A stretch of DNA of 64,000 nt from an uncultured Bacilli bacterium (GCA_934140575.1 CAKPBJ010000004.1:33274-97273), one strand, 5' to 3'; numbered from the stretch's first letter, positions 6,679-51,575 are shown. Numbers and translations: made by a program. The notes: generated by a model not told the origin, from the letters alone.

Positions 6679-6691
6679 TTTTTCCCTCCTA

Positions 6692-6907: not shown

Positions 6908-7023
6908 CTTTTCACTCTCCTGTCAATATTTTATCCATCGGCAGTTATTAATAGAGCGATGGAATTGTATCTATCTAAGAAGGTAATAAATACCTTCTTA
7001 TTATCAGATACTGATTTGATACA

Positions 7024-10274: not shown

Positions 10275-10298
10275 ATAACTTTTCTCCCTTCCTACTTA

Positions 10299-10829
10299 TT
10301 AAGCAGCTTTCTTTCCTTCTTTACGACGAATATGTTCATCTTTATATCTGATACCTTTTCCTTTATATGGTTCAGGTTGTCTTACTTTTCTAATATTAGC
10401 TGCAAATTCTCCAACTAACATTTTATTAATACCTTTAACTTTGATTTCAGTATTACTTACTGATTCAACTGTAAGTCCTTCTGGTACTTCCATTTCAACT
10501 GGATGTGAATATCCAGCATTAATTACTAATTTCTTTCCTTGAACATTGAAACGATAACCAACACCAACTATTTCTAGTCCTTTTTCATAACCATTAGTTA
10601 CACCAATAATCATGTTTTCAACTAAAGCATTCATTGTTCCATGCATTGCTTTAGCATTCTCGTTTGCACGTGCAAATGTTAATTTGTTACCTTCAATATT
10701 CATTGTAATGTCTTTTAACATTGGTTGAGTTAATGTTCCTTTTGGTCCTTTAACTGTTACAACGTTATCAGCATTTTCAACTGTAACTCCTTCTGGAATT
10801 GTAATAATACGATTTCCAATACGGCTCAT
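10299..10829 (-). CDS. rplF: 50S ribosomal protein L6
   Basis: The 176-aa ORF starts MSRIGNRIITIPEGV, the uL6 N-terminus. Confidence 0.95.
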   Translation of the reverse strand: MSRIGNRIITIPEGVTVENADNVVTVKGPKGTLTQPMLKDITMNIEGNKLTFARANENAKAMHGTMNALVENMIIGVTNGYEKGLEIVGVGYRFNVQGKKLVINAGYSHPVEMEVPEGLTVESVSNTEIKVKGINKMLVGEFAANIRKVRQPEPYKGKGIRYKDEHIRRKEGKKAA

Positions 10830-32960: not shown

Positions 32961-35774
32961 CTAGAGCATTTTATTTAAGAATTGTCCAGTATAAGATTCT
33001 TTTACTTTTGCTACTTCTTCTGGTGTTCCACAGGCAACTATTTGTCCACCTTCATCTCCACCTTCTGGACCTAAGTCGATAATATAGTCTGCTACTTTTA
33101 TTACATCTAAGTTATGTTCTATAACGACTACCGTATCTTTATTATCTACTATTTTTTGAAGAATTGCAAGAAGTCGTTTTATGTCATCTGTGTGTAATCC
33201 TGTTGTTGGTTCATCTAGGACAAATAGTGTTTTTCCGGTTGCTCTTTTCTGTAACTCTTTTGCTAATTTTACTCTTTCAGCTTCTCCTCCTGATAGTGTT
33301 GGTGCACTTTGGCCAAGCTTAATATATCCTAGTCCTACATCTTCTAATACTTGTAGTTTTTGTTTTATTTTTGGGACATTATCAAAAAATTCTAATGCTT
33401 CTTTGACCCTCATATCTAATACTTCTGCAATATTTCTTCCTTTATATTTTATGTTTAGAGTTTCTCTATTATAACGAGTTCCGTGACATACTTCACAAGG
33501 AACATAAACATCTGGTAGGAAATGCATCTCTATTTTCTTTACACCATCTCCTCTACAAGCTTCACAGCGACCACCTTTTACATTAAATGAAAATCTGTTT
33601 TTTTCGAATCCGTACATTTTAGCTTCTTTTGTTGTTGTGAATAGTGTTCTTATATCATCAAATACTCCTGTATAAGTTGCTGGATTTGACCTTGGTGTTC
33701 TTCCTATAGGATTTTGAGAAATTGCAACTATTTTATCAATATTATCTATTCCTAAAATTTTTTTATGTTTTCCTGGTTTTTCTTTACTATGGTATAATTC
33801 TTGAGATATTTTCTTTACTAGTATTTCATTTATTAATGAACTTTTTCCACTGCCTGATACTCCAGTTATACACGTAAAAGTTCCAAGAGGAATATCTACA
33901 TCAATATTTTTCAAGTTGTGTTCTTCTGCCCCTCTTATCTTCAAATACTTTTTATTACCTTTTCTTCTAGTTTTTGGAATTTCTATTCTTTTTTTGCCAC
34001 TTAAATATTGTCCAGTTATGCTTTTTTCATTTTTCATAACTTCTTCTGGAGTTCCACAGGCAACTATTTGTCCACCTTGATCTCCAGCTCCTGGTCCAAT
34101 ATCAACTAGATAATCACAAGCTCTCATTGTATCTTCATCATGTTCTACTACTATAAGAGTATTTCCTAAATCACGCATCTCAAGCATTGACTTTATTAAT
34201 TTTTCATTGTCTCTTTGATGAAGTCCAATACTAGGTTCATCTAAAACATATAAAACTCCCGTTAAATGAGAACCTATTTGAGTAGCAAGTCTAATTCTTT
34301 GAGCTTCTCCACCTGATAATGTACCTGCACTTCTACTTAATGTTAAATATTCTAATCCAACATTTTTTAAGAAGTTTAGTCTATCTTCTATTTCTTTTAA
34401 TATAAGTTTTGCAATTTCTTGTTTTTCTTTAGAAAGCTTTAATTTACTAAAGAAATTTACTAATTCTTTAATACTCATTTTTGTAACTTGATAAATATTT
34501 TTTCCTCCAACTTTTACTTGAAGTACATCATCATTTAATCTAGCGCCTTTACAAGTATCACATTCATATTCAATCATATAATTTTCTAGCCATTCTCTTA
34601 TCCATGTTGAACTAGTTTCCATATATCTTCTTTGAAGATTATTAATAATTCCTTCATAAAATGAATTTGAATTCATTATATTCCCGCTTTTTGTTGAATA
34701 ATTAAAATGAATTACTTCATCTGATCCATATAAAATCATATCTTTTTGTTTTTTAGTTAATTTAGAAAAAGGTTTATCCATATCAATTTTATAATGATTA
34801 CAAACACATTGTAATTTTTTGTAATCCATATTTTCTTGATCATCACTTAGTGTCTTTATTGCACCTTCATTAATTGATATATTTTTATCTGGAATTACTA
34901 AGTCTGGGTCAATTTGTAATTTTATTCCTAAACCTTTACATTCTGGACATGCTCCATATGGGGCATTGAAACTAAACAATCTTGGTTCAAGTTCTGGTAG
35001 ACTAAATTCACAATGAGGACATGCAAATTGTTCTGAAAAGACTATTTCTTTCTTGTCTTCTCCAAGAATTTGAATGACTACTTTGCCATTTGATAATTTT
35101 GTTGATTGTTCTATTGCTTCGAAAAGTCTACTTCTTGATTCTTCCTTTAAAACAATTCTATCTATTACTACATCAATTTTATCTTTTACATTTTTATCTA
35201 GAGTTATGTCTTCACTTAAATCATACATTTCGCCATTTACTCTGACTCTTATATATCCTTCTTTTCTCAACTTATCTAATAAATCTTTATGTGTTCCTTT
35301 TTCTCCATGAACTACAGGTGACAAAATAATCATTTTTGTTCCTATAGGATATTCCATGATCTTATTTGTCATTTCTTCTACACTTTGAGAAGATATTGGA
35401 ATATTATGATTTGGACAATATGGAGTCCCCACTCTTGCGAATAATAGTCTTAAGTAATCATATATTTCTGTCACTGTTCCCACTGTTGATCTTGGATTAT
35501 TAGAAGTTGTTTTTTGATCAATACTAATTGCTGGAGATAGACCTTCAATCGAATCAACATCTGGTTTTTCTGAGCCACCTAAAAATTGTCTAGCATATGC
35601 TGATAGGCTTTCTACATATCTTCTTTGTCCCTCAGCATAAATTGTATCAAAAGCTAATGAACTTTTTCCACTTCCAGATAATCCTGTCATAACAATCATT
35701 TTATTTTTTGGTAATTCAATACTTACATTTTTTAAATTATTTTCCCTTGCACCTTTTACTATAATTTTATCCAT
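32961..35774 (-). CDS. uvrA: excinuclease ABC subunit A
   Basis: Two ABC ATPase modules (GLSGSGKSS, GVSGSGKSS) and zinc-finger Cys clusters are present. The likely start is MDKIIVKGAREN at 35774, preceded by AGGTGA. Confidence 0.95.
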   Translation of the reverse strand: MDKIIVKGARENNLKNVSIELPKNKMIVMTGLSGSGKSSLAFDTIYAEGQRRYVESLSAYARQFLGGSEKPDVDSIEGLSPAISIDQKTTSNNPRSTVGTVTEIYDYLRLLFARVGTPYCPNHNIPISSQSVEEMTNKIMEYPIGTKMIILSPVVHGEKGTHKDLLDKLRKEGYIRVRVNGEMYDLSEDITLDKNVKDKIDVVIDRIVLKEESRSRLFEAIEQSTKLSNGKVVIQILGEDKKEIVFSEQFACPHCEFSLPELEPRLFSFNAPYGACPECKGLGIKLQIDPDLVIPDKNISINEGAIKTLSDDQENMDYKKLQCVCNHYKIDMDKPFSKLTKKQKDMILYGSDEVIHFNYSTKSGNIMNSNSFYEGIINNLQRRYMETSSTWIREWLENYMIEYECDTCKGARLNDDVLQVKVGGKNIYQVTKMSIKELVNFFSKLKLSKEKQEIAKLILKEIEDRLNFLKNVGLEYLTLSRSAGTLSGGEAQRIRLATQIGSHLTGVLYVLDEPSIGLHQRDNEKLIKSMLEMRDLGNTLIVVEHDEDTMRACDYLVDIGPGAGDQGGQIVACGTPEEVMKNEKSITGQYLSGKKRIEIPKTRRKGNKKYLKIRGAEEHNLKNIDVDIPLGTFTCITGVSGSGKSSLINEILVKKISQELYHSKEKPGKHKKILGIDNIDKIVAISQNPIGRTPRSNPATYTGVFDDIRTLFTTTKEAKMYGFEKNRFSFNVKGGRCEACRGDGVKKIEMHFLPDVYVPCEVCHGTRYNRETLNIKYKGRNIAEVLDMRVKEALEFFDNVPKIKQKLQVLEDVGLGYIKLGQSAPTLSGGEAERVKLAKELQKRATGKTLFVLDEPTTGLHTDDIKRLLAILQKIVDNKDTVVVIEHNLDVIKVADYIIDLGPEGGDEGGQIVACGTPEEVAKVKESYTGQFLNKML

Positions 35775-37323: not shown

Positions 37324-38157
37324 TTAACTATTGAGTCTTTCTTTAAAAGTACATGATTGGCATAATTTTTCACAAGGTTTTCTATCTTGAAATGATTTTT
37401 TTAATGATATGTATTTTTCTGAATTAATTATTTCTTCTAGGCTTTCTTTGAATATATTACCAAGATTAACTACTCCATTTGAATCAAGACAACAAGGAAC
37501 TACTGTTCCATCTACTAATATACCTATTTGAGTTTTTAAGGCATAGCAATAACCATTACTTTTATGAGTTGTTACTTCTGGCCAAGAAAACTCATTATCT
37601 TTATCCACATATATTGTGGATTTTATTTTTATGTTATTAGATGTATAAATTTTATCAACAGTTTCTTGTGGTAAATTATAATATTTTTTTATTTTATTAA
37701 CAATTTCTTGTGACTTACTATCTAATTGATTATTTTTTAAAGTCCATAAACGATATATTATAATTTTATCTTTTAATAATTCCACTTTTTTAAATATTTC
37801 TTCACAGTAATTATCAAGACTATTTTCTGAATGAAGAGAGAAATTTATTTTGCGTAGTGAGTTACATTCACTTAACTCTTTTGCTACTTTACTAAATAAT
37901 GTACCATTTGTTGTAAGGTTTACTTTTAAATTATACTTATCTGCAAGGCGTAAGAACTCTATAATATTTGGATGAAGTAATGGTTCTCCTTTAATATGAA
38001 GATATATATAGTCGGTGTAGTCTTTTATTTTTATTAAAATATTTTCAAACTCTTCTGTTGTCATAAATCTTCTTTTTCTTTTTACTTCACTGCAAAAACT
38101 GCATTTTAGATTACAATTATTGGTAATTTCTATATAAATTTTTTTGTATTTTTTCAT
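37324..38157 (-). CDS. radical SAM/SPASM-domain protein
   Basis: The N-terminal CNLKCSFC motif is a CxxxCxxC cluster, and GEPLL is present. A C-terminal Cys cluster (CCLD...CEKLCQSC) is typical of SPASM/twitch domains. Its ATG overlaps the uvrB TGA as ATGA. Confidence 0.7.
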
Positions 38158-40106
38158 AGTGTTGTCTTCATTTCAAATAAGATATCACGTAATTCCATTG
38201 CTCTTTCAAAGTCAAGGTCTTTTGCAGCTTTTCTCATTTCTGCTTCGATACTATCTATTTCTTTCATTATTTCTTTCTTAGTTCTCTTCTTCTTTGTCTT
38301 TGTATCTGCATTAGCATTATTTGTGATAATGTCTCTTATATCCTTCTTTATTGTTTGTGGAACTATACCATGTTCTTCATTATATTTTTCCTGAATTTTT
38401 CTACGTCTTGCAGTTTCAGTAATTGCTTCATTCATAGAGTCTGTTATTTTATCACCATACATTATTACGTGACCATTTGCGTTTCTTGCACATCTTCCGA
38501 TAGTTTGAATAAGACTTCTTGTACTACGTAAGAATCCTTCTTTATCAGCATCAAGTATGGCAATTAATGATACTTCTGGAATGTCTAGACCTTCTCTTAA
38601 CAAGTTGATTCCTACAAGTACGTCGTATTTTTTGGCTCTTACATCATGAATTATTTGCATTCTCTCTAATGTTTTTACTTCACTATGAAGATAAGCAACT
38701 TTTATGTCTAACTCTTTTAGGTAATTTGTTAATTCCTCTGCCATTCTAATAGTTAAGGTTGTGATTAGTACTCTTTCATCTTTTTTGATTCTTTCATTTA
38801 TCTCACCAACAAGATCATCAATTTGACCTTCAGTTTTTCTTACTTCTATTGTTGGATCTAATAATCCTGTCGGTCTAATAATTTGTTCTACATATTGATT
38901 ATTTGTATGTTCTAATTCTAAATCACCTGGTGTTGCGGAAACATATATGGCTTGATTTATCTTTTTTTCAAATTCATCATACTTTAAAGGTCTATTATCT
39001 AGGGCACTTGGAAGTCTAAATCCATAATCAACTAAATTCATTTTTCTAGCTCTGTCACCATTATACATACCTCTAACTTGTGGTAATGTAACGTGAGATT
39101 CGTCTACTACTAATAAATAATCATCTGGGAAGAAGTCCATTAATGTCGTTGGTGTTTCTCCTGGCTTTCTTCCGGCCATTGGTGCAGAATAATTCTCTAT
39201 TCCTGAACAAAATCCTGTTTCTTCTAGCATCTCTAAATCATAATTTGTTCTTTGTTCTAGACGTTCTGCAGCAAGTAATTTATTTTCATTCTTTAACACT
39301 TCCAATCTGTCTTTTAATTCAAGTTTAATTCTTTCAATTGCTGATTTTAATTTTTCATCACTTACCACGAAGTGACTTGCGGGGAAGATGCTTACATTTT
39401 TCATATTTTTTAATATTGTACCAGTTAATGTGTCTATTTCACAAATTCTATCTATTTCCTCATCAAAAAATTCTATTCTATATCCTATTGTATTTTGATT
39501 TGCTGGAATAATTTCTAATGTATCTCCTCTTACTCTGAATGTACCACGCTTAAAGTCTAAATCATTTCTTTCATACAACATTTCAACTAACTTTGTTAGA
39601 ACTTGTTCTCTTGATGTGTTTTCTCCAACACTTAGAGTTAACATTTTGTTTTTATATTCTTCTACTTCACCAATACCATAAATACATGATACTGATGATA
39701 CTACTATTACATCTCTTCTACTAATAAGGGCAGAAGTTGCGGCATGACGTAATTCATCTATTTCATCATTAATTGATGAGTCTTTTTCTATGTAAGTATC
39801 AGTTGATGGAACATATGCTTCAGGTTGATAATAATCATAATAAGATACAAAATATTCTACTCTATTTTCAGGAAATAATTCTTTTAATTCACTGTATAAC
39901 TGACCAGCAAGAGTTTTATTATGAGCAAGAACTAGAGTTGGCTTATTTGTTCTTGCGATTACATTAGCTATAGTGAAAGTTTTTCCTGTTCCAGTAGCGC
40001 CTAGTAAAACTTGTTCTTTTTTTCCTTCTTCTAATCCTTTTACTAGTTTGTTAATTGCTTGTGGTTGGTCACCTGCTGGTTCATAATGTGCGTGTAATTT
40101 AAACAT
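38154..40106 (-). CDS. uvrB: excinuclease ABC subunit B
   Basis: The helicase motifs ([13 protein letters not shown]) are present, and the C-terminal UVR domain reads [15 protein letters not shown]. The likely start is [10 protein letters not shown] at 40106, preceded by GGAGGGAGG. Confidence 0.95.
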
Positions 40107-40242
40107 TTTTTTCCTCCCTCCTTTATAACTTTCTGTGACTTTTTTTGAACTTTTAAAAGTATAACTGTCAGCCAACTATTAGTCCCTAAATTTGTCCTCA
40201 TTGCTTATAATTTAATGGTTAAATTGATACTTTTTTCTTTGG

Positions 40243-40263
40243 GACGAATGAAAGTCACAAATT
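40243..40263 (+). repeat. 21-nt direct repeat, copy 1 (gggacgaatgaaagtcacaaa)
   Basis: An exact 21-mer recurs at 47537-47557 in the same orientation, with extended similarity of about 30 nt. The two copies bracket the accessory segment. Confidence 0.8.
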
Positions 40264-40433
40264 TTATTTTCTGGACTAAATAACATTAAACAACATTAGA
40301 TGGCGTTTTCGCTATATTATTTTATCATTTTTCCCTTGAAAAAACAAGGTAATCGCAAAAATACCCTATTCTTATTATCATCTATTTTTTAATTAAAATA
40401 CTGTTAATTCATTTAAAATATTTTCATCAATAG

Positions 40434-41135
40434 AAATATCAGATTCGTCCCCAATTTGTATTTCTAATTATTGGTACCGCAATTTATGCAGCAGCATATA
40501 ATTTATTTTTCTTTAAGAATAGCATAGTATTTGGTGGTGCAAGTGGTATATCAATAATTACCCAAAAGATAATAGATCCTTCTGTTATGATACTTATCTT
40601 AAACGTATTTTTCCTGATTTTAAGTTTGTTTTTATTAGGAAAAAGAAAAAACCTAGATTCGGTTGTAGGTTCTGTTTTATTTCCACTATTTGTTAAATTT
40701 ACGGCAAATATAGGAGATTATATTCATATTTCAAACGATAATTTACTTTTAATATCAATAGTAGGCGGTGTATGCGTAGGTACTGCATCTGATATTATAT
40801 TTAAAAGTTGATTTACAACTGGTGGAACTGATATATCAAACCAAGTAGTAGCAAGATATTTTAAAGTTTCAATCGGAACTTCTATGCTAATGACTGATGG
40901 ACTTTCAGCGTTTAATGTATCGGTTGGACAAATAGTTACTAAAGATACTGTAATAGGAAAATCAGGAAATACCGGTAATTCAACAGGACCACACTTACAT
41001 TTAGGATTAGCAAATGGTAGGTGATATGCTGACTATTATTCATATTATGGAAATAATTGTTTTATAGGACATTCATTTAACCCAAGAAATATAATAGGAT
41101 TTCCGGTAAAAGGACAGAACTATTATAACAGATAA
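40434..41135 (+). pseudogene. chimeric pseudogene: YitT-family N-terminal part joined to an M23-peptidase C-terminal fragment
   Basis: The translation QIRPQFVFLIIGTAIYAAAYNLF...FTTGGTDI matches residues about 20-175 of the YitT paralogue at 55275-56153. It then continues in frame into VGQIVTKDTVIGKSGNTGNSTGPHLHLGLANG, which is M23-like (compare GYMGNTGYSFGCHLHLE at 51576-52733). In-frame stops lie at 40809 and 41022, and no start codon is present. Confidence 0.7.
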
Positions 41136-41319
41136 AAAAATCTAAAAAAGTCAAGTTTTTAACTTTGATTTTTTTTAATTTACGTCAAGAAAAATATTGA
41201 TTTTTGTCGAATTTTGTGGTATTTTTTTATAGTAGGATAGCCGATTCTAAGTGGTTTAGTGGTTATCTAAAAGAAGCATTAAATGTCTTCAATATTTCAT
41301 ACAAAAGGAGGCGAATAAC

Positions 41320-41847
41320 GTGAATCAAAAGGAAAAGAAAGGGTTAATAGCTTTAGTAATACTACTTGTAGTAGCTATTGGTGTTGGTTTTGCAGCATCA
41401 CAAGACGCAGTAAATATTACTGGTACTGCAAGCGCTGTTGCAACGGATTTTGATATTCAGTTTAAAACTGATGCTGAAATAACAATACAAAAAAGTGCTG
41501 GTGCTGCAATAGCTGCTTCAGGTGCTTATGGTGCTAATGGAAATGCTGATGCTACAATGACTGTTTCTGGATTAAAGAACGCTGGTGATTATGCAGAAGC
41601 AACTTATACTATCATAAACAAAAGTACTGATGTAAACGCTGACATTACAGCAAAAGTATCATCTGCTATTGAAGATGCAGATCATTATAATGTTGAAGTA
41701 ACAGGTGGTGCAAATGGTGTTGCTCCAGATGCAACAACTACTGTAACAGTTAAAGTTACACTAATCAAAGCTTTTGCTGATGATACAGCTGCAAAGACAG
41801 CAAAATCATTCAAAATTACAGCAACTGGTGTAGCAGCTGAAAAATAA
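41320..41847 (+). CDS. small secreted protein with SipW-cognate-type signal peptide (TasA/BsaA-like matrix-fibre subunit candidate)
   Basis: The 175-aa ORF uses a GTG start after AAAGGAGG. It has a K-rich N-region, an h-region, then FAASQDAVNITGTASAV. The mature part is Ala/Thr/Gly/Val-rich and acidic. Confidence 0.55.
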   Translation: MNQKEKKGLIALVILLVVAIGVGFAASQDAVNITGTASAVATDFDIQFKTDAEITIQKSAGAAIAASGAYGANGNADATMTVSGLKNAGDYAEATYTIINKSTDVNADITAKVSSAIEDADHYNVEVTGGANGVAPDATTTVTVKVTLIKAFADDTAAKTAKSFKITATGVAAEK

Positions 41848-41882
41848 TATTTGAAAGAAATTAATTAAGGAGGAGGTATATC

Positions 41883-43007
41883 GTGGCTAAAAGAAGAGAT
41901 TCGGCTTATATATACTTTGCATTTGTAATAGTATTTCTTCTCCTTAATCTTCTTGTGCTAAATATTAGTGCAAAATTACAATTGTTACCCATATTTATAA
42001 TTATATTTTTGTTAAGTTTTATCTTCTTCAAATTTAGAAAAGACAAAACTTATGCAAGAATTCGGGTAACTATTACAATGTTACTTATAGGAATTGTACA
42101 AATAGTTTTATATCTTTTAACCGGCTTTTTAGAGGGTTTTTCTAAGAATGCTATTAGTATGAGTTTTAACCGTTTTTTAACCGTTATTTTACCTATTATA
42201 TTAATATTAGTAGTTATTGAATTATTAAGATATATGATATCAGTAAAATTCGAAAAAAACAATTTAATAAGAATACTTAGTATTACTATGTTTGTACTAT
42301 TTGATGTGACTTTATTTGGCTCAAATGTGATTTTTAATAGTTTGGATTCTGTATTAGAATTTTTAGGAATAACGTTTTTTCCTAGTCTGGTAAGTAATAT
42401 TGTGTTTGATGATATGGTAGTTAAATATGGATATAAACCAATACTTGTTTATAGATTATTAACAACGTTATGTTATTACATGTTGCCTATCGTTCCTAAT
42501 ATGTATATTTTATTTAGGGCAATTGCAAGAATAGTTATTCCTCTTATTTTTTACTTCATATTATCTTATATGTATGATAGGGTAACGTTTCAAGAAGCAT
42601 TAAAGGTAAAGCCTAATATAAGTATTTCATCAATAATTATACTTATATTAGTAATTATTATGGCAGGTTTAATATCTTGCGAATTTAGATATGGTATTTT
42701 AACAATTGGAAGTGGTTCTATGACTGGAACTTTAAACAAAGGAGATATTGCTTTTGTCGAAAAATTTAATGGTCAGGAGTTAGAAATAGGTGACATTATT
42801 ATATTTAAACGAGGCAAAAGAAATATAGTCCATAGAATCACACAAGTTGGCATATTCAATGATGAATACGTTTATATAACAAAAGGAGATAAAAATAAAG
42901 TAGAAGATAATGGGTATGTTTATCAAAAGGATATTCAAGGTATAGTTCACTATAGGATAAAATATATTGGATACCCATCTATTTGGATAAGAAATTTATT
43001 TAATTAA
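41883..43007 (+). CDS. SipW-type (archaeal/ER-type) signal peptidase I fused to an N-terminal 8-TM domain
   Basis: The C-terminal roughly 110 aa read GSGSMTGTLNKGDIAFV...IVHRITQV...ITKGDKN, with the Ser and His of the SipW/Sec11-type catalytic dyad. The N-terminal roughly 250 aa contain 8 predicted TM helices and no His. The start is GTG after GGAGGAGG. Confidence 0.6.
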   Translation: MAKRRDSAYIYFAFVIVFLLLNLLVLNISAKLQLLPIFIIIFLLSFIFFKFRKDKTYARIRVTITMLLIGIVQIVLYLLTGFLEGFSKNAISMSFNRFLTVILPIILILVVIELLRYMISVKFEKNNLIRILSITMFVLFDVTLFGSNVIFNSLDSVLEFLGITFFPSLVSNIVFDDMVVKYGYKPILVYRLLTTLCYYMLPIVPNMYILFRAIARIVIPLIFYFILSYMYDRVTFQEALKVKPNISISSIIILILVIIMAGLISCEFRYGILTIGSGSMTGTLNKGDIAFVEKFNGQELEIGDIIIFKRGKRNIVHRITQVGIFNDEYVYITKGDKNKVEDNGYVYQKDIQGIVHYRIKYIGYPSIWIRNLFN

Positions 43008-43038
43008 TGTAATTAAAATTTAAAAAGGAGGTAAAGTT

Positions 43039-44133
43039 ATGGACAGAAAACAAATAAACAAAGTTATGCAAGCAACAAAAAAAAGAACTAGAACTATTGC
43101 TATTTTGATATTTGTTGTAATAGCTGTTTTACTTGCAGCTATAAGCATAATTTTTATCTCTATAAATAGTGAGAAGAATTACTACATTCATTATGATGAA
43201 AAAAGTGATTTAGATTATAAGGTATATTTAAAAGAAAATGATTATTTTGGAAGATACCTAGGTAAAAACAATCAATATATTGCAAGCCTAATTGATTATG
43301 TGGAGGCAGATTTTAATTATAAATTATCAATCGATGAGAAAATTGATTATTCATATTATTATTACGTAGAAGCAACTGTTCAGGTTTTAGATACTAATGA
43401 TAAACCATTATATAAAAAGGTTGATAAAGTAGTTGAAAAACAATATTTCAAGGATCCTATTAATCATGCTTTTGAAATAGATCAAACTGTTAATTTGGAT
43501 TATAATTACTATAATAATATAGTAAATACGTTTATTAAGAGATATAACTTATCAAATGTTAAAAGTAATGTCACTTTAAGTATGTATGTTGGAATTGAAG
43601 GGGAATGTAAAAAATTTGATTCTTCTTTAGCAGACAACGCAGTTATTAGTATGAACGTCCCATTAACAACAAACACTGTTAATATTGACATGAATTATAA
43701 ATTAAATAATTCTACAAACAAGTTATTAAAATGTAGAGAAGAATCAGTATTAAATAATAAATTACTTATTTTAGGCATAGTTTTATTATTCATTGATTTA
43801 GGTGTTTTCGTAGGAACTATTAGATATTCAAAAAGAACTAGAAGCACTTTAACTATATATAATAAAAAACTAAAAAGTATTTTTAATAATTATGGTCAAT
43901 ATATATCTAAGATTAAAACGGAGTTTAAATATGAAAAATTTCAAATTGTATTAGTTGAAGAGTTTGAGGATTTATTTGAGGTAAGAAATTCAAGTAATTC
44001 ACCTATATTATTTTGTCAGGATGAAACAAAAACAAGAAGTGCCTTTGTTGTTCCAACAAATTCTGGACTAGTGTACATCTATTATTATTCAATTAGTAAT
44101 GTGATTGAGCAAGGATGCAAACATGAAAGTTAA
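43039..44133 (+). CDS. bitopic (2-TM) membrane protein of unknown function
   Basis: The 364-aa ORF has a TM helix near residues 20-42 and a second near 243-262, with a Tyr/Asp-rich extracytoplasmic domain between them. It overlaps the next gene. Confidence 0.5.
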   Translation: MDRKQINKVMQATKKRTRTIAILIFVVIAVLLAAISIIFISINSEKNYYIHYDEKSDLDYKVYLKENDYFGRYLGKNNQYIASLIDYVEADFNYKLSIDEKIDYSYYYYVEATVQVLDTNDKPLYKKVDKVVEKQYFKDPINHAFEIDQTVNLDYNYYNNIVNTFIKRYNLSNVKSNVTLSMYVGIEGECKKFDSSLADNAVISMNVPLTTNTVNIDMNYKLNNSTNKLLKCREESVLNNKLLILGIVLLFIDLGVFVGTIRYSKRTRSTLTIYNKKLKSIFNNYGQYISKIKTEFKYEKFQIVLVEEFEDLFEVRNSSNSPILFCQDETKTRSAFVVPTNSGLVYIYYYSISNVIEQGCKHES

Positions 44134-46492
44134 AGATAAATTTTTAAAGGCACGAAAAAAATATAGTGATAGTAAGAAGTGGGCAATTTTTCTTATATTA
44201 ACTATATTTTTATTGAATATAGGTTACGCAGCTTCAAAGGCCTCGCTTGAAATAAATGGTAGTGCGAGTGCTGTAAAAGTACCAGAATTATTTATCGAAG
44301 AAGTAAAAATAATTGACATAAACGGATGTTCACAAAATGAACTTCCCATAACAAATGGAACTACTTTGGATACTAATATAAATTTTCCTTCTAATGAATA
44401 TTCATATATAACATATCAGGTAACTATTGCAAATGGTACGGATTCTATTCAAAAGTATACAGGAGAAACTTATAATAGCGTTACATCAACTAAAAATGTT
44501 ATTAATTATGAACTTACGGATGGTCTTTCTTCCGGTGAGTATTTGTTTCCTGGGAATAGTGCAACATATACGTTAACTTATAAGTATAGAAACGGTGCAA
44601 GTACAGGTAATTATGATTTGAAAATGAACTTTAATTTTGAAGATTCCGGTAAGTTTTCTGCACTTTCATATACAAATAGTGTTGATTTAACTAATAAAAC
44701 TAAGGAAGCCGTAAAAATTAAGGTAATGAATAATGGAGATTCTGCAATCAATTATAATCTCAACATAGATAATACTAAATTTGAACTAACTGATATTAAT
44801 GGAAATTTTTTAAGTTCTCTTTCTATAAAAGCTCATACTGAAGAAGAAATAACTGTTTATATATCCAAAAAGCCAGATGTTACATATTACAAAACAGAAT
44901 ATGAAACAAACTTTAGTTTAAGTTATAATGATATTACACTAGATTTTGGAAAAATAAAAATAAAAACAAATACAACAAGTGGCTATGTTGATACAACACC
45001 TCCTCAAATAGGGGCAGTATCAGTTGATATCGTATATGAAGTCGGATCAATTGATGTTACTTGGTCTAATTTAGATAATAAAAATGAGGCTCCAGTAACT
45101 AATTATGTTGTTTTACTTTATAATGATTCGGGAACTCTTGTTACAACCGGAAACACTGGTAATTCAGATACCACCTATAGATTTAAAAATCAAGCACAAG
45201 GAAATTATTATGCTGTAGTTTATGGTATAGACGAAGCTGAAAATTCAGGAGAAACTTATGTTTCAGTTTCTTCAACATCAACAACCAATGCAAGAAAATC
45301 TGTTACAAAAGAAATGAGATGGAAAAGAACAATAACATATAATGTTACAAATATTAATGTTACAGGACCTAATGAGGCTAATTTAGGTGAGTCATTTACA
45401 GCTACATTAAAACCGAATAATAACTATAAATATAATTCTGTTCCTTCAGTTACGTCAGACGGTAAAACTTTTAAAGATTATTCAACGGATGCTAATAAAT
45501 ATACTATAACAATAAATCAGGTGACAGGTGATTTAGTTATTAATGCAACAGCAGCAAGAAATGCTTGCCTTGCTAAAGGAACAAAAATATTACTTGCAAA
45601 TGGCAAATATAAGAACATAGAAAATATTAGATATGATGATTTACTAATGGTATATAATCATGAAAATGGTACATTTACTCCTGAATATCCTATTTGGATT
45701 GAAAAAGGTAATTTGTCTAGTAATTATCAAGTAATAACATTTAGTGATGGTACTTCTTTAACAACGATTGATAAACATTCTTTATTTAGTGTTGATGATA
45801 ATAGATATGTTGATGTAACAGATGAAAATACATTTCACGTTGGAACTAACATATTAAAAACAGTAAAATCTAAGAGAGGTTACAAGCTCAAAAGTGTTTC
45901 TGTAACTAATATAGAAAAGGTAAATAAATCGATTGATTATTATGACGTTGTATCAACAAGATACTATGATATAATTGCAAACGATGTATTAACATCAGAT
46001 GGAAGAACAGGACTAGTTAATTTTTATGAATTTAAGGAAAATGCTGTTTGGTCTTCAAGAAGACAAGAAGTTATAAAGAATAATACATTCTTAAACTATG
46101 AAGATTATAAATTTATTCCGTATTACTTGTTCCATGGCTTAAGAGCACAAGATGGAGCGGTTATAATTAAGTATAATTATATGACTAAAGAAGAATTTGA
46201 ATCTGTGTTTACCGATTTATTATTAAATAAAGAAATGGTATTAGATCCAATAACTAAAAACAAAAAAAGATATTGGATGGTAACAACATCAGATGATAAA
46301 GTAACAAGTAAAAATAAAGGAAAATATTTACTGAAAGAAAATAGTTATTATACGTTAGAAAAACCTAAGAAAACGAAAGATTTCAAAGGTTGGTATAATA
46401 CTGGCGATGGGAAAATTTATAAACCTGGTAGTAAGGTAAAGATATATCATGGTACACATTTTGTTGCATCATATAAAAAAATTAGCTCATAA
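44123..46492 (+). CDS. large secreted multidomain protein (SipW-cognate-type signal, FN3-like, Hint/intein-like domain, C-terminal Flg_new-like repeat)
   Basis: The start is taken at ATG 44123, with AAGGA 6 nt upstream. The signal ends NIGYAASKASLEINGSASAV, which parallels gene 41320. An FN3-like segment is present (DVTWSNL...YRFKNQAQGNYYAVVYGIDEAENSG). The Hint N-terminus reads CLAKGTKILLANGKYKNIENIRYDDLL and the Hint C-terminal block reads YYDIIANDVLTSDG. The C-terminus, FKGWYNTGDGKIYKPGSKVKIYHGTHFVASYK, resembles a Listeria-Bacteroides repeat. Confidence 0.6.
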   Translation: MKVKDKFLKARKKYSDSKKWAIFLILTIFLLNIGYAASKASLEINGSASAVKVPELFIEEVKIIDINGCSQNELPITNGTTLDTNINFPSNEYSYITYQVTIANGTDSIQKYTGETYNSVTSTKNVINYELTDGLSSGEYLFPGNSATYTLTYKYRNGASTGNYDLKMNFNFEDSGKFSALSYTNSVDLTNKTKEAVKIKVMNNGDSAINYNLNIDNTKFELTDINGNFLSSLSIKAHTEEEITVYISKKPDVTYYKTEYETNFSLSYNDITLDFGKIKIKTNTTSGYVDTTPPQIGAVSVDIVYEVGSIDVTWSNLDNKNEAPVTNYVVLLYNDSGTLVTTGNTGNSDTTYRFKNQAQGNYYAVVYGIDEAENSGETYVSVSSTSTTNARKSVTKEMRWKRTITYNVTNINVTGPNEANLGESFTATLKPNNNYKYNSVPSVTSDGKTFKDYSTDANKYTITINQVTGDLVINATAARNACLAKGTKILLANGKYKNIENIRYDDLLMVYNHENGTFTPEYPIWIEKGNLSSNYQVITFSDGTSLTTIDKHSLFSVDDNRYVDVTDENTFHVGTNILKTVKSKRGYKLKSVSVTNIEKVNKSIDYYDVVSTRYYDIIANDVLTSDGRTGLVNFYEFKENAVWSSRRQEVIKNNTFLNYEDYKFIPYYLFHGLRAQDGAVIIKYNYMTKEEFESVFTDLLLNKEMVLDPITKNKKRYWMVTTSDDKVTSKNKGKYLLKENSYYTLEKPKKTKDFKGWYNTGDGKIYKPGSKVKIYHGTHFVASYKKISS

Positions 46493-46513
46493 CTACATGA
46501 GCTAATTTTTTTT
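46481..46513. terminator. bidirectional rho-independent terminator
   Basis: ATTAGCTCAT aacta CATGAGCTAAT forms a 10-bp stem followed by TTTTTTTT on the plus strand and an A-run before it. It overlaps the stop of gene 44123-46492. Confidence 0.75.
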
Positions 46514-46531
46514 ATAGATCAAATAGAAAAA

Positions 46532-46885
46532 TTATTCTTTAATTATATATTTTATTACTTCTTCTATGCTTTTCTTTGTTCCATTAGTATTGTAATATAT
46601 TAAAACAGTATCAATAGCAAGTTGTAGCATATTAAAATATATTGTAATCTCACGCTCTTTAGCAGTGTCTTTATATTCATTAATATATTTTTCAAATATC
46701 TTTTTATCTTCATTTGAAAGTGGTTTTATTTCAAAATTATATTTCTTTTCTTTTTTTGCAAATTCAGGAATTATTATTTCTTCTTTTGTATCTTCTATTA
46801 CATTTTTTTGTTCTTCTTTTTGTTTTTTAATATCACTTATTTTGACTTTAAGGTGGTCATTTGCAGAATTCTCTTTTACTTTCAT
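46532..46885 (-). CDS. hypothetical K/E-rich protein with predicted C-terminal ribbon-helix-helix-like segment (ParG/omega-like?)
   Basis: The 117-aa ORF has a C-terminus (REITIYFNMLQLAIDTVLIYYNTNGTKKSIEEVIKYIIKE) with a beta-alpha-alpha pattern. It lies immediately downstream of the ParA fragment, in the same frame, separated by one stop codon. Confidence 0.35.
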   Translation of the reverse strand: MKVKENSANDHLKVKISDIKKQKEEQKNVIEDTKEEIIIPEFAKKEKKYNFEIKPLSNEDKKIFEKYINEYKDTAKEREITIYFNMLQLAIDTVLIYYNTNGTKKSIEEVIKYIIKE

Positions 46886-46900
46886 TTCTGATACTATCTG

Positions 46901-47206
46901 TTATACTCTCTCCATTGCTATCTCTTGAATATTCATTAAGTGCTCATTAGTAGTGTTGTGTATAGAGATTTCTTTCTCTCTTTCAAATACTTTAACCTCA
47001 TCATTGCGTGTTTGTCCTCTACTTAAATCTTCTTCATTATACCAACCTGCATAAGTTGTTAGGTTACTTTGTGGATCAACATCTACAATTAAAACTTTTT
47101 TACATTGCTTTGCTAATGCTACTCCAAGATTAAAAGTTGTTGTTGTTTTACCAACTCCCTCTTTTTGGTTTGTAATAGCAATTACCTTACACCTACTTTC
47201 TTGCAT
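46901..47206 (-). pseudogene. ParA/Soj-family partition ATPase, N-terminal fragment (truncated)
   Basis: The 101-aa ORF has the deviant Walker A ([23 protein letters not shown]...[10 protein letters not shown]) but ends after about 100 aa, whereas full ParA proteins are about 200-260 aa. Confidence 0.6.
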
Positions 47207-47300
47207 ATATTCTCCTCCTTTCTTTTTAATTTAGCCACCATACAATTAAATAGAGTGGCTATGTATGGGTACAAAAAAAAACTGACTATTTCTAATCAGT

Positions 47301-47453
47301 TCAAATATATTTATTTAATTTTAATATAAGTTCATCAACAGGTTCTGTGTATCTGCCATGTTCTAATATTTTATTTCTAAATTCATTTAAAGCATTTAAT
47401 ACTATTTTTATTTCATTATTATAAGTCGGTAGTTTAATTTTTTTCTTTATCAT
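47301..47453 (-). CDS. small hypothetical protein (50 aa)
   Basis: This ORF is not in the ORF track. GGGAG lies 10 nt upstream of the ATG at 47453. The translation is MIKKKIKLPTYNNEIKIVLNALNEFRNKILEHGRYTEPVDELILKLNKYI, ending at TGA. Confidence 0.3.
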   Translation of the reverse strand: MIKKKIKLPTYNNEIKIVLNALNEFRNKILEHGRYTEPVDELILKLNKYI

Positions 47454-47536
47454 AATAATCAAACTCCCATTTGTTATTTATATTATATCAATATAATAAT
47501 ATTAAGTTAATTGTGCAATTATTATTGGGGACGAAT

Positions 47537-47557
47537 TGGGACGAATGAAAGTCACAA
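47537..47557 (+). repeat. 21-nt direct repeat, copy 2 (gggacgaatgaaagtcacaaa)
   Basis: This is identical to 40243-40263. It is preceded by a partial tandem copy (gggacgaatt). Confidence 0.8.
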
Positions 47558-47644
47558 AATCTATTTTAACATTCAGTATTATCTAGTCCATTTCGTTTTA
47601 TTTAGTCCTATTTTTGTGGATTTATCAACACTAGATAACATAGG

Positions 47645-47928
47645 AAAAGTGCTAACATCATAATAAGATACAAAATATTCTACTCTATTTTCAGGAAATA
47701 ATTCTTTTAATTCACTGTATAACTGGCCAGCAAGAGTCTTATTATGAGCAAGAACTAGAGTTGGCTTATTTGTTCTTGCAATTACATTAGCTATAGTGAA
47801 AGTTTTTCCTGTTCCAGTAGTGCCTAGTAAAACTTGTTTTTTCCTTCTTCTAATCCCTTTACTAGTTCGTTAATTGCCTGTGGTTAATCTCCATTTGGTT
47901 TATATTTTGAAACAAGTTTAAACATAAA
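47645..47928 (-). pseudogene. duplicated, decayed copy of the uvrB 5' end (codons 1 to about 93)
   Basis: The segment aligns to 39832-40106 (the real uvrB 5' end) and covers the start codon. Identity is about 96-97 percent over the first roughly 190 nt, then a 5-nt deletion, and the last roughly 40 nt are heavily diverged. The deletion breaks the frame. Confidence 0.8.
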
Positions 47929-48014
47929 TTACTTCTTTTTTTATTTATTTGTATTTTATCATTTTATATACATCAAAACAAGGAAACTATTTTTAGTTTC
48001 CTATATATTTTTTA

Positions 48015-49160
48015 TTAATAATTTTTATTTTCCTTTACCATTTTTTTGGGTTTTTCTTCATTTTCATCTTGCAAATTCTTTGGTTCAAAAGGTTTTAATT
48101 TACTAAAAAAATCATCTTCTATCAAAAAGGAATTTTTAGGATTAAATATTGGTTCATGGCTTGCGAAATCTTTACTTGATAAATGTAATCCTTGAACAAA
48201 AGAAGTTCCTATATCTCCATTAAAACAAATACTTCTTAAATGATTAGAAAAACCATTTGGATAATCATAGTGATTTGATGGTTCACTAGATATTACTCCA
48301 TTAGTTGTACATTTATCTATCTTATCAATAAACTCATAGGATACGTTATTTGTTTTCTCATGCAAAAGATCATTACTTTTTTTCATGCAAGAACTATAAA
48401 GATAAAGTCCAGCGGCTTGAATAGGGTTAAATTCTAATACATCAATATAACTTTGATTTTCAATTTGATATTCAAATAAATCTAAAACATAATAATCAGG
48501 AAATACTCCTTTAAGTTTTTCAACAATACTTTCTGCAAATTCTAATACTTCTGGCTCTATACTATGTAAAATAGTAGTTGTATTTCTAGAAATATTATAG
48601 ATTTCATTGTTAACTACAAAACATCGATATTCTTTTACACCATAATTATCCTCTTCAATATTAACTTTTTTACTAATAATAAAGTCATCTTCTAAATGAT
48701 GCATTAAAGTTTTGTGTAATGCGCATTCTTTATCTAAAAGTAACTTTACTGGAATAATAGCACTAAAGTTTTTAGTTTTAGTTTTAAAGAATATTTCTTT
48801 TCCATATACTTCTTCTATTTCTTTTACTATATCAGAGTTAATCAAATCTTTTCCTTTAAATATTTTACATTTTCTTTCTGTAGAGTAATAATTTGGCCAA
48901 CTTTTTACTATCTCAACATCATTATTTGACATGATAGGAATACCACCTTGTTTAATAATTTCATCATTCATATCATGTATTTGAGTTTCACCAGTTCTTG
49001 GAAATATTAGTTTAGACTTAATATCTATTATATTACCATCAAAATCAGTAAAAATTTTTAATTTATTATCATAAAGTATTCCATTTTGATTCATCTTAGA
49101 AATTGCCATTTCCCTTTTAGAATAATCCCATGGTAAAAGTTTATCAAAACAATATAACAT
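48015..49160 (-). CDS. ATP-grasp-fold domain protein (putative ligase)
   Basis: The 381-aa ORF has a central region (YRCFVVNNEIY ... YVLDLFEYQIENQSYIDVLEFNP) that resembles ATP-grasp nucleotide-binding motifs. Confidence 0.45.
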   Translation of the reverse strand: MLYCFDKLLPWDYSKREMAISKMNQNGILYDNKLKIFTDFDGNIIDIKSKLIFPRTGETQIHDMNDEIIKQGGIPIMSNNDVEIVKSWPNYYSTERKCKIFKGKDLINSDIVKEIEEVYGKEIFFKTKTKNFSAIIPVKLLLDKECALHKTLMHHLEDDFIISKKVNIEEDNYGVKEYRCFVVNNEIYNISRNTTTILHSIEPEVLEFAESIVEKLKGVFPDYYVLDLFEYQIENQSYIDVLEFNPIQAAGLYLYSSCMKKSNDLLHEKTNNVSYEFIDKIDKCTTNGVISSEPSNHYDYPNGFSNHLRSICFNGDIGTSFVQGLHLSSKDFASHEPIFNPKNSFLIEDDFFSKLKPFEPKNLQDENEEKPKKMVKENKNY

Positions 49161-49445
49161 AATGTCACCTCAAAATCATACTTATTATAAATCATTTTCA
49201 AAAAAATACAAAGAACTATTTTATTATTTTATAAGCTAATACGAGATTTTCATGATATTCTGAATTTTTTCTATGTCATTTGCTTTCTACTTCTTTTATA
49301 ATTTAATAACTTTACTTGTTGCGTGATTTAAATAAAAGTATGTTTACAGTTTTTTCTATTAGTAAATCACTTAAAGTACTAATAAAATTTTCTGCTAATT
49401 AAACTATATTTAGATTTTTTATTTTGCTTATAAACTTGTAATACA

Positions 49446-50087
49446 TTAATTGTTATCTTCAATTATAGTTCCACAATACTCACATTTTACTTTACTAAAT
49501 TTATTAAGTTCATTAATTGCACCACAATTTGGACAATTTATAGTCTTTTTTTCCAAACTAACTTTTCTTTTATCAATAGTATAATATGATATCGACTTAT
49601 CAACGTTATTTAATTTTATTCCATTTAATAAACCTTTTGAATAAAGATATGATATGTCATTATATATTTTATTTTTTGTCTCTTCAAGGTTATTAAATGT
49701 AGTTTTTGGGTATCTTACTGCTATTTCATCTATTTGTAAGTGTTGATAATAGATAAATTTTGAATATTCATTTAATAGTTTCTCATCACTTTCAGAACAA
49801 GGCCTTATTTTTTTAGTATTTACATCTATATAATAATCTCCAATTAATCTTTTGTTCTTTAGATAGCGAATTTTCATGACACATTCTTCTAATGTACAAT
49901 TACTCTCTTTAGCAATAATTTCTATATCATCATATTTTTTATTTATAATTAAATCATAAATTATTTCTAATTTCCTATTAAATTCATTATCCGTTGGCTC
50001 AGTTAAATTATAGTATTTAGCGTATTTTTTATATGATTCATCTGATATTTTTGCTTTTGTCTTTTTTATTAATTCTAGTAAGTTCAT
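49446..50087 (-). CDS. hypothetical protein with C-terminal zinc ribbon
   Basis: The 213-aa ORF has a C-terminal CPNCG...CEYCG zinc ribbon. Confidence 0.5.
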   Translation of the reverse strand: MNLLELIKKTKAKISDESYKKYAKYYNLTEPTDNEFNRKLEIIYDLIINKKYDDIEIIAKESNCTLEECVMKIRYLKNKRLIGDYYIDVNTKKIRPCSESDEKLLNEYSKFIYYQHLQIDEIAVRYPKTTFNNLEETKNKIYNDISYLYSKGLLNGIKLNNVDKSISYYTIDKRKVSLEKKTINCPNCGAINELNKFSKVKCEYCGTIIEDNN

Positions 50088-50153
50088 TTTCTTCTCCTTT
50101 TTTATTATAAATTTTTTGTATAAAACTTTCTGATTTATAATTTATCTTATTTT

Positions 50154-51047
50154 TTAGTTTTTATATAGTGCGTTTTCTTTTTCTATTTTTGGATACCAGT
50201 TTTCATAATCAACAGTATAAAAATTCATCTTTTCTTGTTTTAGTCCATCATAATAATTTTTATGTTTTTTATCTCTTATACTTGCGGCATATGTTGAATC
50301 ATAATAATAGAATTTTCCATTATATTTGACTATATTCCACATGTGTGAACCTGTTGAGTAGCCTGTTATAATCATAGAATCTATACCTATATTTTGAAAA
50401 ATCACTTGACTTGTTTTAGCAAATCCTGCACATACTGCATTACCTTTTATAAAGACATTATATATAGATTGATTTTTAGAACTTCCTGTAAGCAATTGAT
50501 CATAATAAGCATTATCTCCAATCCATTCATAAACATATTTTATTTTTTCTAAATCAGACATATTTTTTGTAGCTTTTTTTATTTTATCAATTTTACGTTC
50601 TATTAACAATGTATTTATTTCTTCTTCTAATTGGTTATTAATTGCATATATTGGAAATATTTCTATATAATCTGAATTTTCTTTATAGCGATAAGAATAG
50701 TATGCATAACTTATTAATTCTGGATGTTCTACCCATATAGCTTGATTGGCTACCCTATAATCACTAATTATACTTTCAATTGTTTCATTATCTTGCTTTT
50801 TTATTTTTTTAGAAGTCTTTCTTTGTTTTATTGTTTCTAATAAAGTTTTATATGCTTTTTTCTCATTTTTACTTAAATAATTATTATAAATTTTTCCATC
50901 TGACATATATATATCATTTATGTATAATTCGCTTTTTTTATTTATATTTGGATTTGGTTCTATTATTCTTGTATAATTTATATAAATGAACACTGAAGCA
51001 ATAATTAATATTACAGTAAAAATTTTATTTCTTTTATAATATCTCAT
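50154..51047 (-). CDS. membrane-anchored transglutaminase-like (papain-fold) domain protein
   Basis: The 297-aa ORF has an N-terminal TM helix. GNAVCAGFAKTSQVIF...GYSTGSHMWNIVKYNGKFYYYDST matches the Cys-His-Asp arrangement of the transglutaminase-like core. Confidence 0.6.
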   Translation of the reverse strand: MRYYKRNKIFTVILIIASVFIYINYTRIIEPNPNINKKSELYINDIYMSDGKIYNNYLSKNEKKAYKTLLETIKQRKTSKKIKKQDNETIESIISDYRVANQAIWVEHPELISYAYYSYRYKENSDYIEIFPIYAINNQLEEEINTLLIERKIDKIKKATKNMSDLEKIKYVYEWIGDNAYYDQLLTGSSKNQSIYNVFIKGNAVCAGFAKTSQVIFQNIGIDSMIITGYSTGSHMWNIVKYNGKFYYYDSTYAASIRDKKHKNYYDGLKQEKMNFYTVDYENWYPKIEKENALYKN

Positions 51048-51404
51048 TTAGTCCTCCATATCATATCTATATGCCCCTGTAAAATAAGCAAGTATTGGAT
51101 AAAATACAAATGGAAATATAAAGCAAAGTAAACCTGTAATTTTTCCTTTTTCATAGGCATCTGCTAGTATAAATGGCATAAATACAAAAATAAGTGTTCC
51201 AAAAAACGATCTGTCTGGCGAGAAAATTAATCCTAAGCTAATGATTATTAATAAAATTGGACTTATTTCTAATATTTGAAATAAAATGTATAAGTTATAT
51301 ATGGGGATTAAGCCAGATAGAGCATTATATCCTGCTTTACTAAAAAAGCCTGGTAATGATAGATAAAATGATAATATATAAATAATTATTAAAACTTTAA
51401 TCAT
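51048..51404 (-). CDS. small membrane protein
   Basis: The 118-aa ORF has 3-4 TM helices, and its start abuts the stop of the transglutaminase-like gene. Confidence 0.5.
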   Translation of the reverse strand: MIKVLIIIYILSFYLSLPGFFSKAGYNALSGLIPIYNLYILFQILEISPILLIIISLGLIFSPDRSFFGTLIFVFMPFILADAYEKGKITGLLCFIFPFVFYPILAYFTGAYRYDMED

Positions 51405-51575
51405 ACTACACCTCTATTTTTATTATAGCTTATTTTTATACAAATAAAAAATAATATTTTTAATTAAAAGCATTATAAAAGAGTGATTAAAAATCACTCT
51501 CTCTAAACAAGTCATTTATCAAATTTATTGTTCACCAACACTTTTTGACAAAGAACCAATACTTTTTTTTATATT

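Follow-up and report, generated by a model that had tools for sequence, protein, structure and literature searches.

A probable decayed remnant of a site-specific integrative element in the 5′ end of uvrB of an uncultured Bacilli bacterium

The duplicated 5′ end of uvrB and the empty site

We analysed a 64,000-nt stretch of DNA from an uncultured Bacilli bacterium (GCA_934140575.1, CAKPBJ010000004.1:33274-97273), hereafter the window, in which an island lies between two copies of the 5′ end of the DNA-repair gene uvrB; all coordinates are positions in this stretch. The uvrB gene itself is intact (38154-40106, minus strand, 650 aa). Its nt 1-273 are present twice in direct orientation, once in the intact gene (39834-40106) and once in a dead fragment (47657-47925), with both copies on the minus strand and both start codons kept (ATG at 40106 and 47925), so that the duplication reported by a first-pass annotation of this DNA was borne out. 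The repeat aligned in two parts, 39834-40024 with 47657-47847 (191 nt, 96%) and 40018-40106 with 47837-47925 (89 nt, 80%). An exact count over nt 1-273 gave 247 matches, 22 mismatches and 4 gap positions, corresponding to 64% identity in nt 1-39 and 94.9% in nt 40-273, where the two copies differ by eight substitutions and one deletion of 4 nt rather than the 5 nt annotated earlier. What had been described as a scrambled distal end of the fragment is a different, intact-looking uvrB N-terminal allele from that of the working gene (MFKLVSKYKPNGD, followed by a CAA to TAA stop at codon 14). At its other end the fragment stops sharply past codon 91 (..TATTATGAT, then GTTAGC..). The island ends also carry a 32-nt direct repeat (40239-40270 and 47536-47567, 94% identical) and all four copies of the 9-mer GGGACGAAT found in the 64-kb window, against 0.05 expected. 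The same arrangement was seen in the independent metagenome assemblies L001-L005 and L105, which are 98.5-100% identical over 22 kb, and thus it is not an assembly artefact.

The nearest genomes by UvrB in a genome-contig scan were uncultured Erysipelotrichaceae metagenome-assembled genomes (82% and 79% identical); the window's own species was not recovered in that scan. In those genomes and other relatives the gene order is YitT, ftsE, ftsX, PcsB-like M23 peptidase, uvrB, uvrA, and the UvrB N-termini (MFNLVSKFKPSGDQ, MFKLTSKYKPSGDQ and similar; MF[NEK]L[VIT]S..) resemble that of the window fragment, not that of the working gene. A reconstructed UvrB, made of the fragment N-terminus and the remainder of the window protein, was a query for the empty site. 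Its top match, P0256, was 100% identical over the full length (with the first 40 residues checked directly) and was encoded on approximately 100 contigs, compared with 25 for the window's own UvrB protein (P0121). Conspecific sites without the island, encoding the native UvrB N-terminus, were found in L103 (221 kb), L104 (170 kb) and 21 similar places. A metagenome pattern scan for the empty site matched only in a different species (L086, 72% identity).

The gene order in L103 and L104 is prfB, YitT, YitT, ftsE, ftsX, PcsB, DUF5684, transglutaminase-like, a 213-aa gene, ATP-grasp, uvrB, radical-SAM, glycosyltransferase and uvrA. The ATP-grasp gene runs straight into uvrB, which answers the check proposed in the first-pass annotation, namely whether sequence upstream of uvrB continues directly into the region at about 48015. 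L103 1-10273 aligned to window 57924 to 47657 and L103 9990-21953 to window 40117 to 28154, with the overlap confined to the 273-nt block. L103 and L104 thus equal the window minus the segment 39834-47656, giving direct target repeats and a precise unoccupied attachment site (attB), and the island is therefore a discrete insertion, present in some strains of the species and absent from others. Because the empty-site strains share the fragment's UvrB N-terminus, the fragment is the displaced native 5′ end of uvrB and not a piece brought in by the element. Together with the 90 nt upstream, 47657-47925 is thus the gene's original 5′ end and promoter region. We label this fragment (codons 1-91, minus strand, pseudogene) attL and the corresponding block of the working gene attR. 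Relative to the empty-site allele, attL bears the TAA stop at codon 14, the 4-nt deletion and eight substitutions. Adjacent to it, the native uvrB upstream region (47926-48014, minus strand), which is contiguous with uvrB in empty-site strains, includes a hairpin at 47981-48002.

The parent element and the position of the crossover

Using as query a hypothetical open reading frame (ORF) that combines the element N-terminus, the repeated block and a read-through tail, we found the undivided attachment site of an element (attP) in L092, L093 and L094, which derive from three samples and include contigs of up to 50 kb. The gene order in these contigs begins with a restriction-modification system, a SWIM-domain gene, a sigma factor, a PemK toxin and a 70-aa HTH_17 (Xis-like) protein, continues with two tyrosine recombinases of 398 aa and 433 aa (IntA and IntB), a uvrB′ ORF (102 aa, MFKLHAPYEPAGDQ..) and a 50-aa ORF, and ends with ParA (276 aa), ParB, a SpaA-type adhesin, a sortase and an 1185-aa protein. 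The L092 attP consists of a 363-nt P arm, a 273-nt segment of uvrB codons 1-91 and a P′ arm. L092 9639-10273 matched window 40469 to 39834 and L092 10022-10919 matched window 47904 to 47022, so that both element ends are joined across a common core in L092-L094. When the uvrB block was excluded, the arms of L092 and the window were 96.7% and 95.8% identical, while the block itself was only 72% identical to the species' native allele. Nt 264 aside, this block has a single stretch in which no diagnostic difference separates L092 from the native allele, namely the 21-nt core, and this is shorter than assembly k-mers; if the host is this species, attP contigs of the L092 type are for this reason not repeat-path artefacts.

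In the window, the P arm lies upstream of the working uvrB (40107-40469, minus strand; 96.7% identical to the L092 attP and 98.3% to L105) and the P′ arm adjoins attL (47022-47656, minus strand; 95.8% to the L092 attP). All five copies of the motif GGACGAAT in 20 kb of L092 fall in attP: the P arm has three and the P′ arm a tandem pair. The window keeps four of the five copies along with both arms: GGGACGAAT is found at 40241-40249 and 40443-40451 in the P arm, which also holds one copy of the 32-nt repeat (D9A, 40239-40270), and in tandem at 47528-47546 in the P′ arm, beside the second copy (D9B, 47536-47567). The repeated GGGACGAAT sites are putative arm-type binding sites for a recombinase, and IntA, IntB and the Xis-like HTH protein are the predicted catalysts of recombination. 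The P′ arm further contains a conserved 53-aa ORF (47301-47462) and a promoter-like site (47482-47510). The tandem motifs stand directly upstream of this promoter-like TTAACT-17-TGnTATAAT sequence for the 53-aa ORF and the parA operon, and could be an operator or centromere instead of, or besides, recombinase arm sites.

Within uvrB nt 1-273, 76 positions distinguish the element allele (L092) from the native allele (L103), and these served as diagnostic sites for the crossover. L105 shares the window's decayed island, including its deletions and cargo, at 98.5% identity over 22 kb. Its attR is in the element state at all 75 diagnostic sites in nt 10-252 and native at nt 264, and its attL is native at 75 of the 76 sites. 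Likewise, in the same-species UvrB proteins P0276-P0278 and P0282 all diagnostic residues up to and including residue 84 are those of the element (..ENLVCYFVSYYD), beyond which P0276-P0278 have 0-2 differences from the native protein and P0282 has nine. The segment shared by attP and attB is 21 bp long (TATTTTGTATC(A/T)TATTATGAT; codons 85-91, nt 253-273), and is found at 39834-39854 in attR (TATTTTGTATCTTATTATGAT, minus strand) and at 47657-47677 in attL. Since both L105 and the P0276-type alleles switch from element to host there, inside nt 253-273, we place strand exchange within this core. A switch confined to 21 nt despite approximately 250 nt of 72% homology favours site-specific over homologous recombination. 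Of the mechanisms offered in the first-pass annotation, a single reciprocal crossover with a circular element is retained, with the site-specific version preferred to homologous Campbell integration. A crossover near nt 40-57, as the window's own mosaic might indicate, is ruled out by the same alleles.

The attR block of the window (coding nt 1-273, 39834-40106, minus strand) is a mosaic of element and native states. Codons 1-13 and K20 of the working gene are of the element allele; at the nucleotide level, nt 58 and 13 of the 14 diagnostic sites in nt 10-39 show the element state, and nt 54, 55 and 57 and the full set of 58 sites spanning nt 63-264 are native. From nt 59 onwards the window uvrB is 100% identical to the empty-site allele. 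The resulting near-perfect repeat of 215-234 nt is absent in L105 despite the same island, and because L105 is element-type up to nt 252 the repeat must be secondary, so that the long overlap once suggested as the recombination site reflects later homogenisation. Intermediate attR mosaics were also identified, being element-type to residue 20 in P0266 and to residue 77 in P0275, P0280 and P0281. Most simply, gene conversion with the displaced copy, 7.8 kb distant, as donor would have put the native allele in place of nt ~52-252 of attR; patchy states such as those at nt 52-58 are typical of heteroduplex repair. The displaced fragment forms a decay series of its own, from an open 116-aa ORF in L002, through the TAA stop in L003 and L105, to the stop, 4-nt deletion and further substitutions of the window.

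The same junction recurs well beyond this species. More than 100 clusters (at 90% identity) of UvrB′ proteins of 100-118 aa (P0001-P0120 and P0122-P0135) were found in related gut Erysipelotrichaceae-like bacteria, all ending in ..YFVSYYD (codon 91) followed by a conserved element-encoded tail, and therefore the same codon-91 junction and the same element end exist in many related species. An 11-nt indel in the P′ arm (one or two copies of TAGTGTT..) determines whether the UvrB′ form is of 102 aa or 116 aa. Intact or decayed integrated copies were seen in other species: L098 and L099, from one of these, have attL followed by an intact ParAB-adhesin-sortase part; L088-L091 retain a 3-4-kb remnant, in which the IntA and IntB pseudogenes of L089 are 91-97% identical to their L092 counterparts; and L095-L097 are left with a scar of ~0.8 kb. 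In L100, from another species, the displaced fragment (10001-10309) next to ftsE-ftsX-PcsB bears an element-type N-terminus, with ~7 kb of extra genes between PcsB and the fragment, which suggests successive integrations (accretion) at the same site.

Contents of the island

The first-pass annotation had considered everything between the uvrB copies to be accessory (a pseudogene, a SipW locus and ParA and ribbon-helix-helix partition remnants) and had stated that no integrase survives. There is no recombinase gene in the window, yet a vestige of the second tyrosine recombinase remains at 40396-40464 (minus strand), comprising the last 23 codons (EIQIGDESDISIDENILNELTVF, then the stop) and 95.7% identical to residues 411-433 of L092 IntB. 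It is followed on the plus strand by a chimeric pseudogene (40473-41132) that fuses a YitT-family fragment (40473-40883) with an M23 peptidase's C-terminal part (40884-41132). The start of this YitT′-M23′ pseudogene coincides with the end of intact-element homology, where a deletion has joined it to the intB vestige. Compared with the YitT and PcsB-like genes of the host itself or of relatives, the two fragments reach only 43-47% identity, and intact YitT and M23-type genes stand upstream of uvrB in this lineage (YitT-ftsEX-PcsB-uvrB). Such low identity, the wrong orientation and a beginning exactly at the deletion joint speak against the capture of an inverted foreign uvrB neighbourhood, and the position beside attR may be a coincidence.

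The centre of the island is occupied by an intact, cargo-like operon of four genes (41320-46492, plus strand). The first encodes a protein of 175 aa that has a hydrophobic stretch near its N-terminus and no family match, and for which the label of SipW locus suggests a candidate TasA-like substrate. It is followed by a gene (41883-43007) for an S26 signal peptidase of the SipW type that carries an unusual multi-pass membrane domain of ~240 aa as its N-terminal extension, by a DUF5305 gene (43039-44133) and by a gene for a 789/795-aa protein with a weak Hint/intein-like match (44105-46492), these too on the plus strand. The operon is conserved in all island-bearing strains and was not seen in the sampled parts of the intact relatives; it may be cargo or a later insertion.

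Beyond the operon, deletion remnants of the gene for the 1185-aa protein lie at 46775-47035 (minus strand), with 46868-47035 matching L092 18521-18704 and 46775-46882 matching L092 19805-19912. A 101-aa ParA′ ORF (46901-47206, minus strand) retains the N-terminal ~60-70 residues of the element ParA, deletion-fused to unrelated sequence, and its 3′ part is made of the 1185-aa gene remnant, inside which a 117-aa ORF (46532-46885) also begins. Given the two short L092 matches, we regard both the ParA stub and the 117-aa ORF as deletion products. The pseudogene, SipW locus and ParA remnant of the earlier account accordingly stand; the ribbon-helix-helix assignment is not supported by any family match, and the 117-aa ORF starts in the 1185-aa gene remnant. 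No Rfam family or tRNA was found in the island, and the 32-nt repeat was ruled out on these grounds as part of an RNA gene.

Two further observations concern the surroundings. The interval between the PcsB-like peptidase and uvrB (window 47926-51575; L006 5600-10000) varies among relatives, with DUF5684, transglutaminase-like, zinc-ribbon and R2K ATP-grasp genes in the window and sortase, SDR and Sir2 genes in L006; it could be a hotspot, or older cargo accreted from the same attachment site. Within uvrA, an internal repeat of ~97 nt (32975-33071 and 34001-34097, 84%) fits the two ABC modules of UvrA.

Origin of the island and relation to known systems

We consider it very likely that 39834-47925 is a decayed remnant of 7.8 kb, bounded by attL and attR, of a site-specific and probably conjugative integrative element, resembling a cis-mobilizable element (CIME). 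Both arms are kept, integration and transfer genes are gone, and the deletion joints could be mapped against L092. The element attP, in which the 363-nt P arm and a promoter-proximal region of the element's own are followed by uvrB codons 1-91 (a copy of 273 nt) and the P′ arm, recombines with the chromosomal uvrB inside the 21-bp core (codons 85-91, TATTTTGTATCWTATTATGAT). Upon integration codons 1-91 and their native promoter end up across the element in attL (47657-47925), and the element promoter region and codons 1 to ~84 are fused to the remaining uvrB (attR), leaving the repair gene intact. Deletions in this lineage stripped the recombinase, partition and transfer genes, sparing 23 codons of intB, the ParA stub, fragments of the 1185-aa gene and both arms, with the SipW-type operon in the middle. 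Conversion of attR nt ~52-252 to the native allele would subsequently have produced the long repeat, and the displaced fragment would have decayed afterwards in the window strain.

The nature of the parent is indicated by a 75%-identical relative of the 1185-aa gene in L102, which is followed by genes for an SNF2-type helicase, a DUF3991-Toprim protein, a NikA-like protein, a relaxase (PF03432) and a DUF3801 protein; this context suggests a putative conjugative or mobilizable backbone. The 1185-aa protein belongs to a family of ~1150-1320 aa (L092 17621-20309; L102 1091-5053) that has no Pfam match and gave 1445 matches at E<=1e-10, and the L102 1091-5053 gene lies directly upstream of the helicase, primase and relaxase genes. 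In its features the parent resembles an integrative element that is probably conjugative and has ParAB. The earlier view of a decayed integrated plasmid or island holds insofar as a circular element integrated and then decayed, with a simple plasmid as the parent now disfavoured. The window island itself has no relaxase, coupling protein or type IV secretion genes, and so would not qualify as one of the integrative and conjugative elements (ICEs). A recombinase next to the attachment site is present in L092-L094 and, as pseudogenes, in L089, and is lacking in the window.

Several points weigh against this reading. With the recombinase absent from the window, activity there cannot be claimed, and the catalytic role of IntA and IntB and the function of the motif as an arm site are deduced from sequence. 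A simple promoter scan returned no consensus site in the P arm, where a promoter is accordingly only presumed. Conjugation is likewise deduced: the ~30 kb sampled from the intact relatives yielded no type IV secretion genes, and the relaxase, DUF3801 and DUF3991-Toprim genes were seen only in the 75%-identical relative L102. Nt 264, the sole diagnostic site in the core, has the native state in attR as well as attL of L105, which places strand exchange in the core as a whole and not at individual cut positions. Finally, the polarity of the mosaic could be the reverse, with L105 renewed by a later integration and an arm-to-arm deletion.

An identical geometry would arise from a RecA-dependent Campbell crossover between uvrB and a plasmid with a captured uvrB 5′ fragment, with no dedicated recombinase involved. 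The 215-234 nt of near-perfect identity in the window would serve such an event and the ParA remnants suggest a plasmid-like parent, but the long identity is absent in L105 with the same island, and in L105, P0276-P0278 and P0282 the alleles switch within the last 21 nt of the block while its other 250 nt are 72% identical. Crossovers spread through the homology were not observed, and in the intact relatives attP is adjoined by two tyrosine recombinases and an Xis-like gene, together with repeated arm motifs. On this evidence we judge a Campbell origin to be very improbable. Even less credible is the notion that 47657-47925 is a conserved paralogous mini-gene, encoding a functional UvrB N-terminal protein of ~100 aa, or a local tandem duplication. 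Open ORFs of 102-116 aa with ResIII/DEAD Pfam matches are indeed widespread, and the ORF is open in L002. It nevertheless always stops at codon 91 before an element-derived tail, is missing from the empty-site conspecifics, is broken by a stop codon and a frameshift in the window, and has element arms beside it in every locus examined.

A narrower question is whether the mosaic attR arose by conversion in situ, or whether the integrating variant already had a host-like block, homogenised while it resided earlier in this species, or the attR of L105 was replaced later. ORFs on ~10 short contigs in which a host-like block follows the element N-terminus (P0001, P0123, P0127, P0128, P0130 and P0134) and the graded attR mosaics (P0266, P0275, P0280 and P0281) are compatible with such a variant. 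Those short attP-type contigs may, however, be assembly paths through the 215-nt repeat, and a single integration followed by divergence is the simpler account of deletions and cargo that L105 and the window share at 98.5%. We therefore think a variant homogenised before integration, or a replaced L105 attR, unlikely; either alters only the history of the repeat and not the identity of the feature.

Some contigs hint that the remnant may still move. L087, a scaffold of 7336 nt, is a circular permutation of the island across an attP-like junction: its nt 1-2960 match window 42784 to 39834 and its nt 2688-7336 match window 47925 to 43280, with ~495 nt missing (42785-43279). Approximately 10 other short contigs encode attP-type ORFs of this island. 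These contigs could represent a circle, a tandem copy or an assembler path through the 215-234-nt repeat, the last being possible because strains with G58 in attR exist (P0265). A combined scenario, in which the intact arms and core let IntA and IntB of a co-resident full-length element excise the remnant as a circle and so spread the SipW operon from strain to strain, the element-supplied promoter and N-terminus put uvrB under element control, and repeated conversion to the native allele reflects selection against a chimeric UvrB, is doubtful.

Comparable logic is known from other systems. SXT/R391 ICEs are tyrosine-recombinase elements that integrate site-specifically in the 5′ extremity of prfC, where tandem arrays and RecA-mediated hybrids form (PMC5812530). 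The window element likewise targets the 5′ part of a housekeeping protein gene. It differs from SXT in its host (an uncultured gut Erysipelotrichaceae-like member of the Bacillota) and target (uvrB), in the two tandem recombinases of its family where SXT has one Int, in replacing a much longer coding segment (91 codons, 273 nt) and in the ParAB module beside attP, and has no sequence relationship with it. SXT reportedly supplies a new promoter and 5′ coding sequence, and prfC stays functional. Phage 21 and e14 in the icd gene of E. coli carry a long substitute gene end, the displaced native end stays behind as a pseudogene and the functional gene is chimeric. Substitute end, displaced pseudogene fragment and chimeric target are all matched in the window island, whereas phage 21 and e14 are prophages with a single integrase each and replace the 3′ end rather than the 5′ end and promoter. 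CIMEs are deletion derivatives of ICEs or of integrative and mobilizable elements that have kept attL and attR and lost integration and transfer genes (PMC5704250). As in the CIMEs of ICESt1/ICESt3-type ICEs, the window island keeps both arms and the core with the int, par and transfer genes deleted; it differs in that mobilisation by accretion is hinted at only by circularly permuted or attP-type contigs (L087 and others), for which assembly ambiguity is possible.

Scans of IMG/VR with the empty-site pattern, the attP pattern, the 23-nt arm repeat and the degenerate junction gave 0 matches each, and comparison of PLSDB plasmids with the island and the L092 int-attP-parA segment returned only generic ParA or uvrB similarity; the arms are thus in neither collection. 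In full-text literature searches uvrB was not encountered as an integration site, and neither the papers searched nor the plasmid and viral collections yielded a description of this element family. Both the target and the family are new and the class of mechanism is familiar; the pairing of recombinases and a replacement of 91 codons are unusual features. The uvrB element reveals no new mechanism, its logic being that of SXT in prfC and of the streptococcal ICE CIMEs. What it does identify is uvrB codons 85-91 as the attachment site of an element family widespread in uncultured Erysipelotrichaceae-like bacteria of the human gut. Orphan database proteins of ~102-116 aa, annotated as ResIII/DEAD and forming more than 100 clusters (90% identity), are thereby explained as integration scars and not genes. 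In carrier strains a core DNA-repair gene would be transcribed from mobile-element DNA, presumably from a P-arm promoter, and the empty site, fresh integrant, decayed remnant and gene-converted remnant together provide a natural series for the repair of chimeric target genes.

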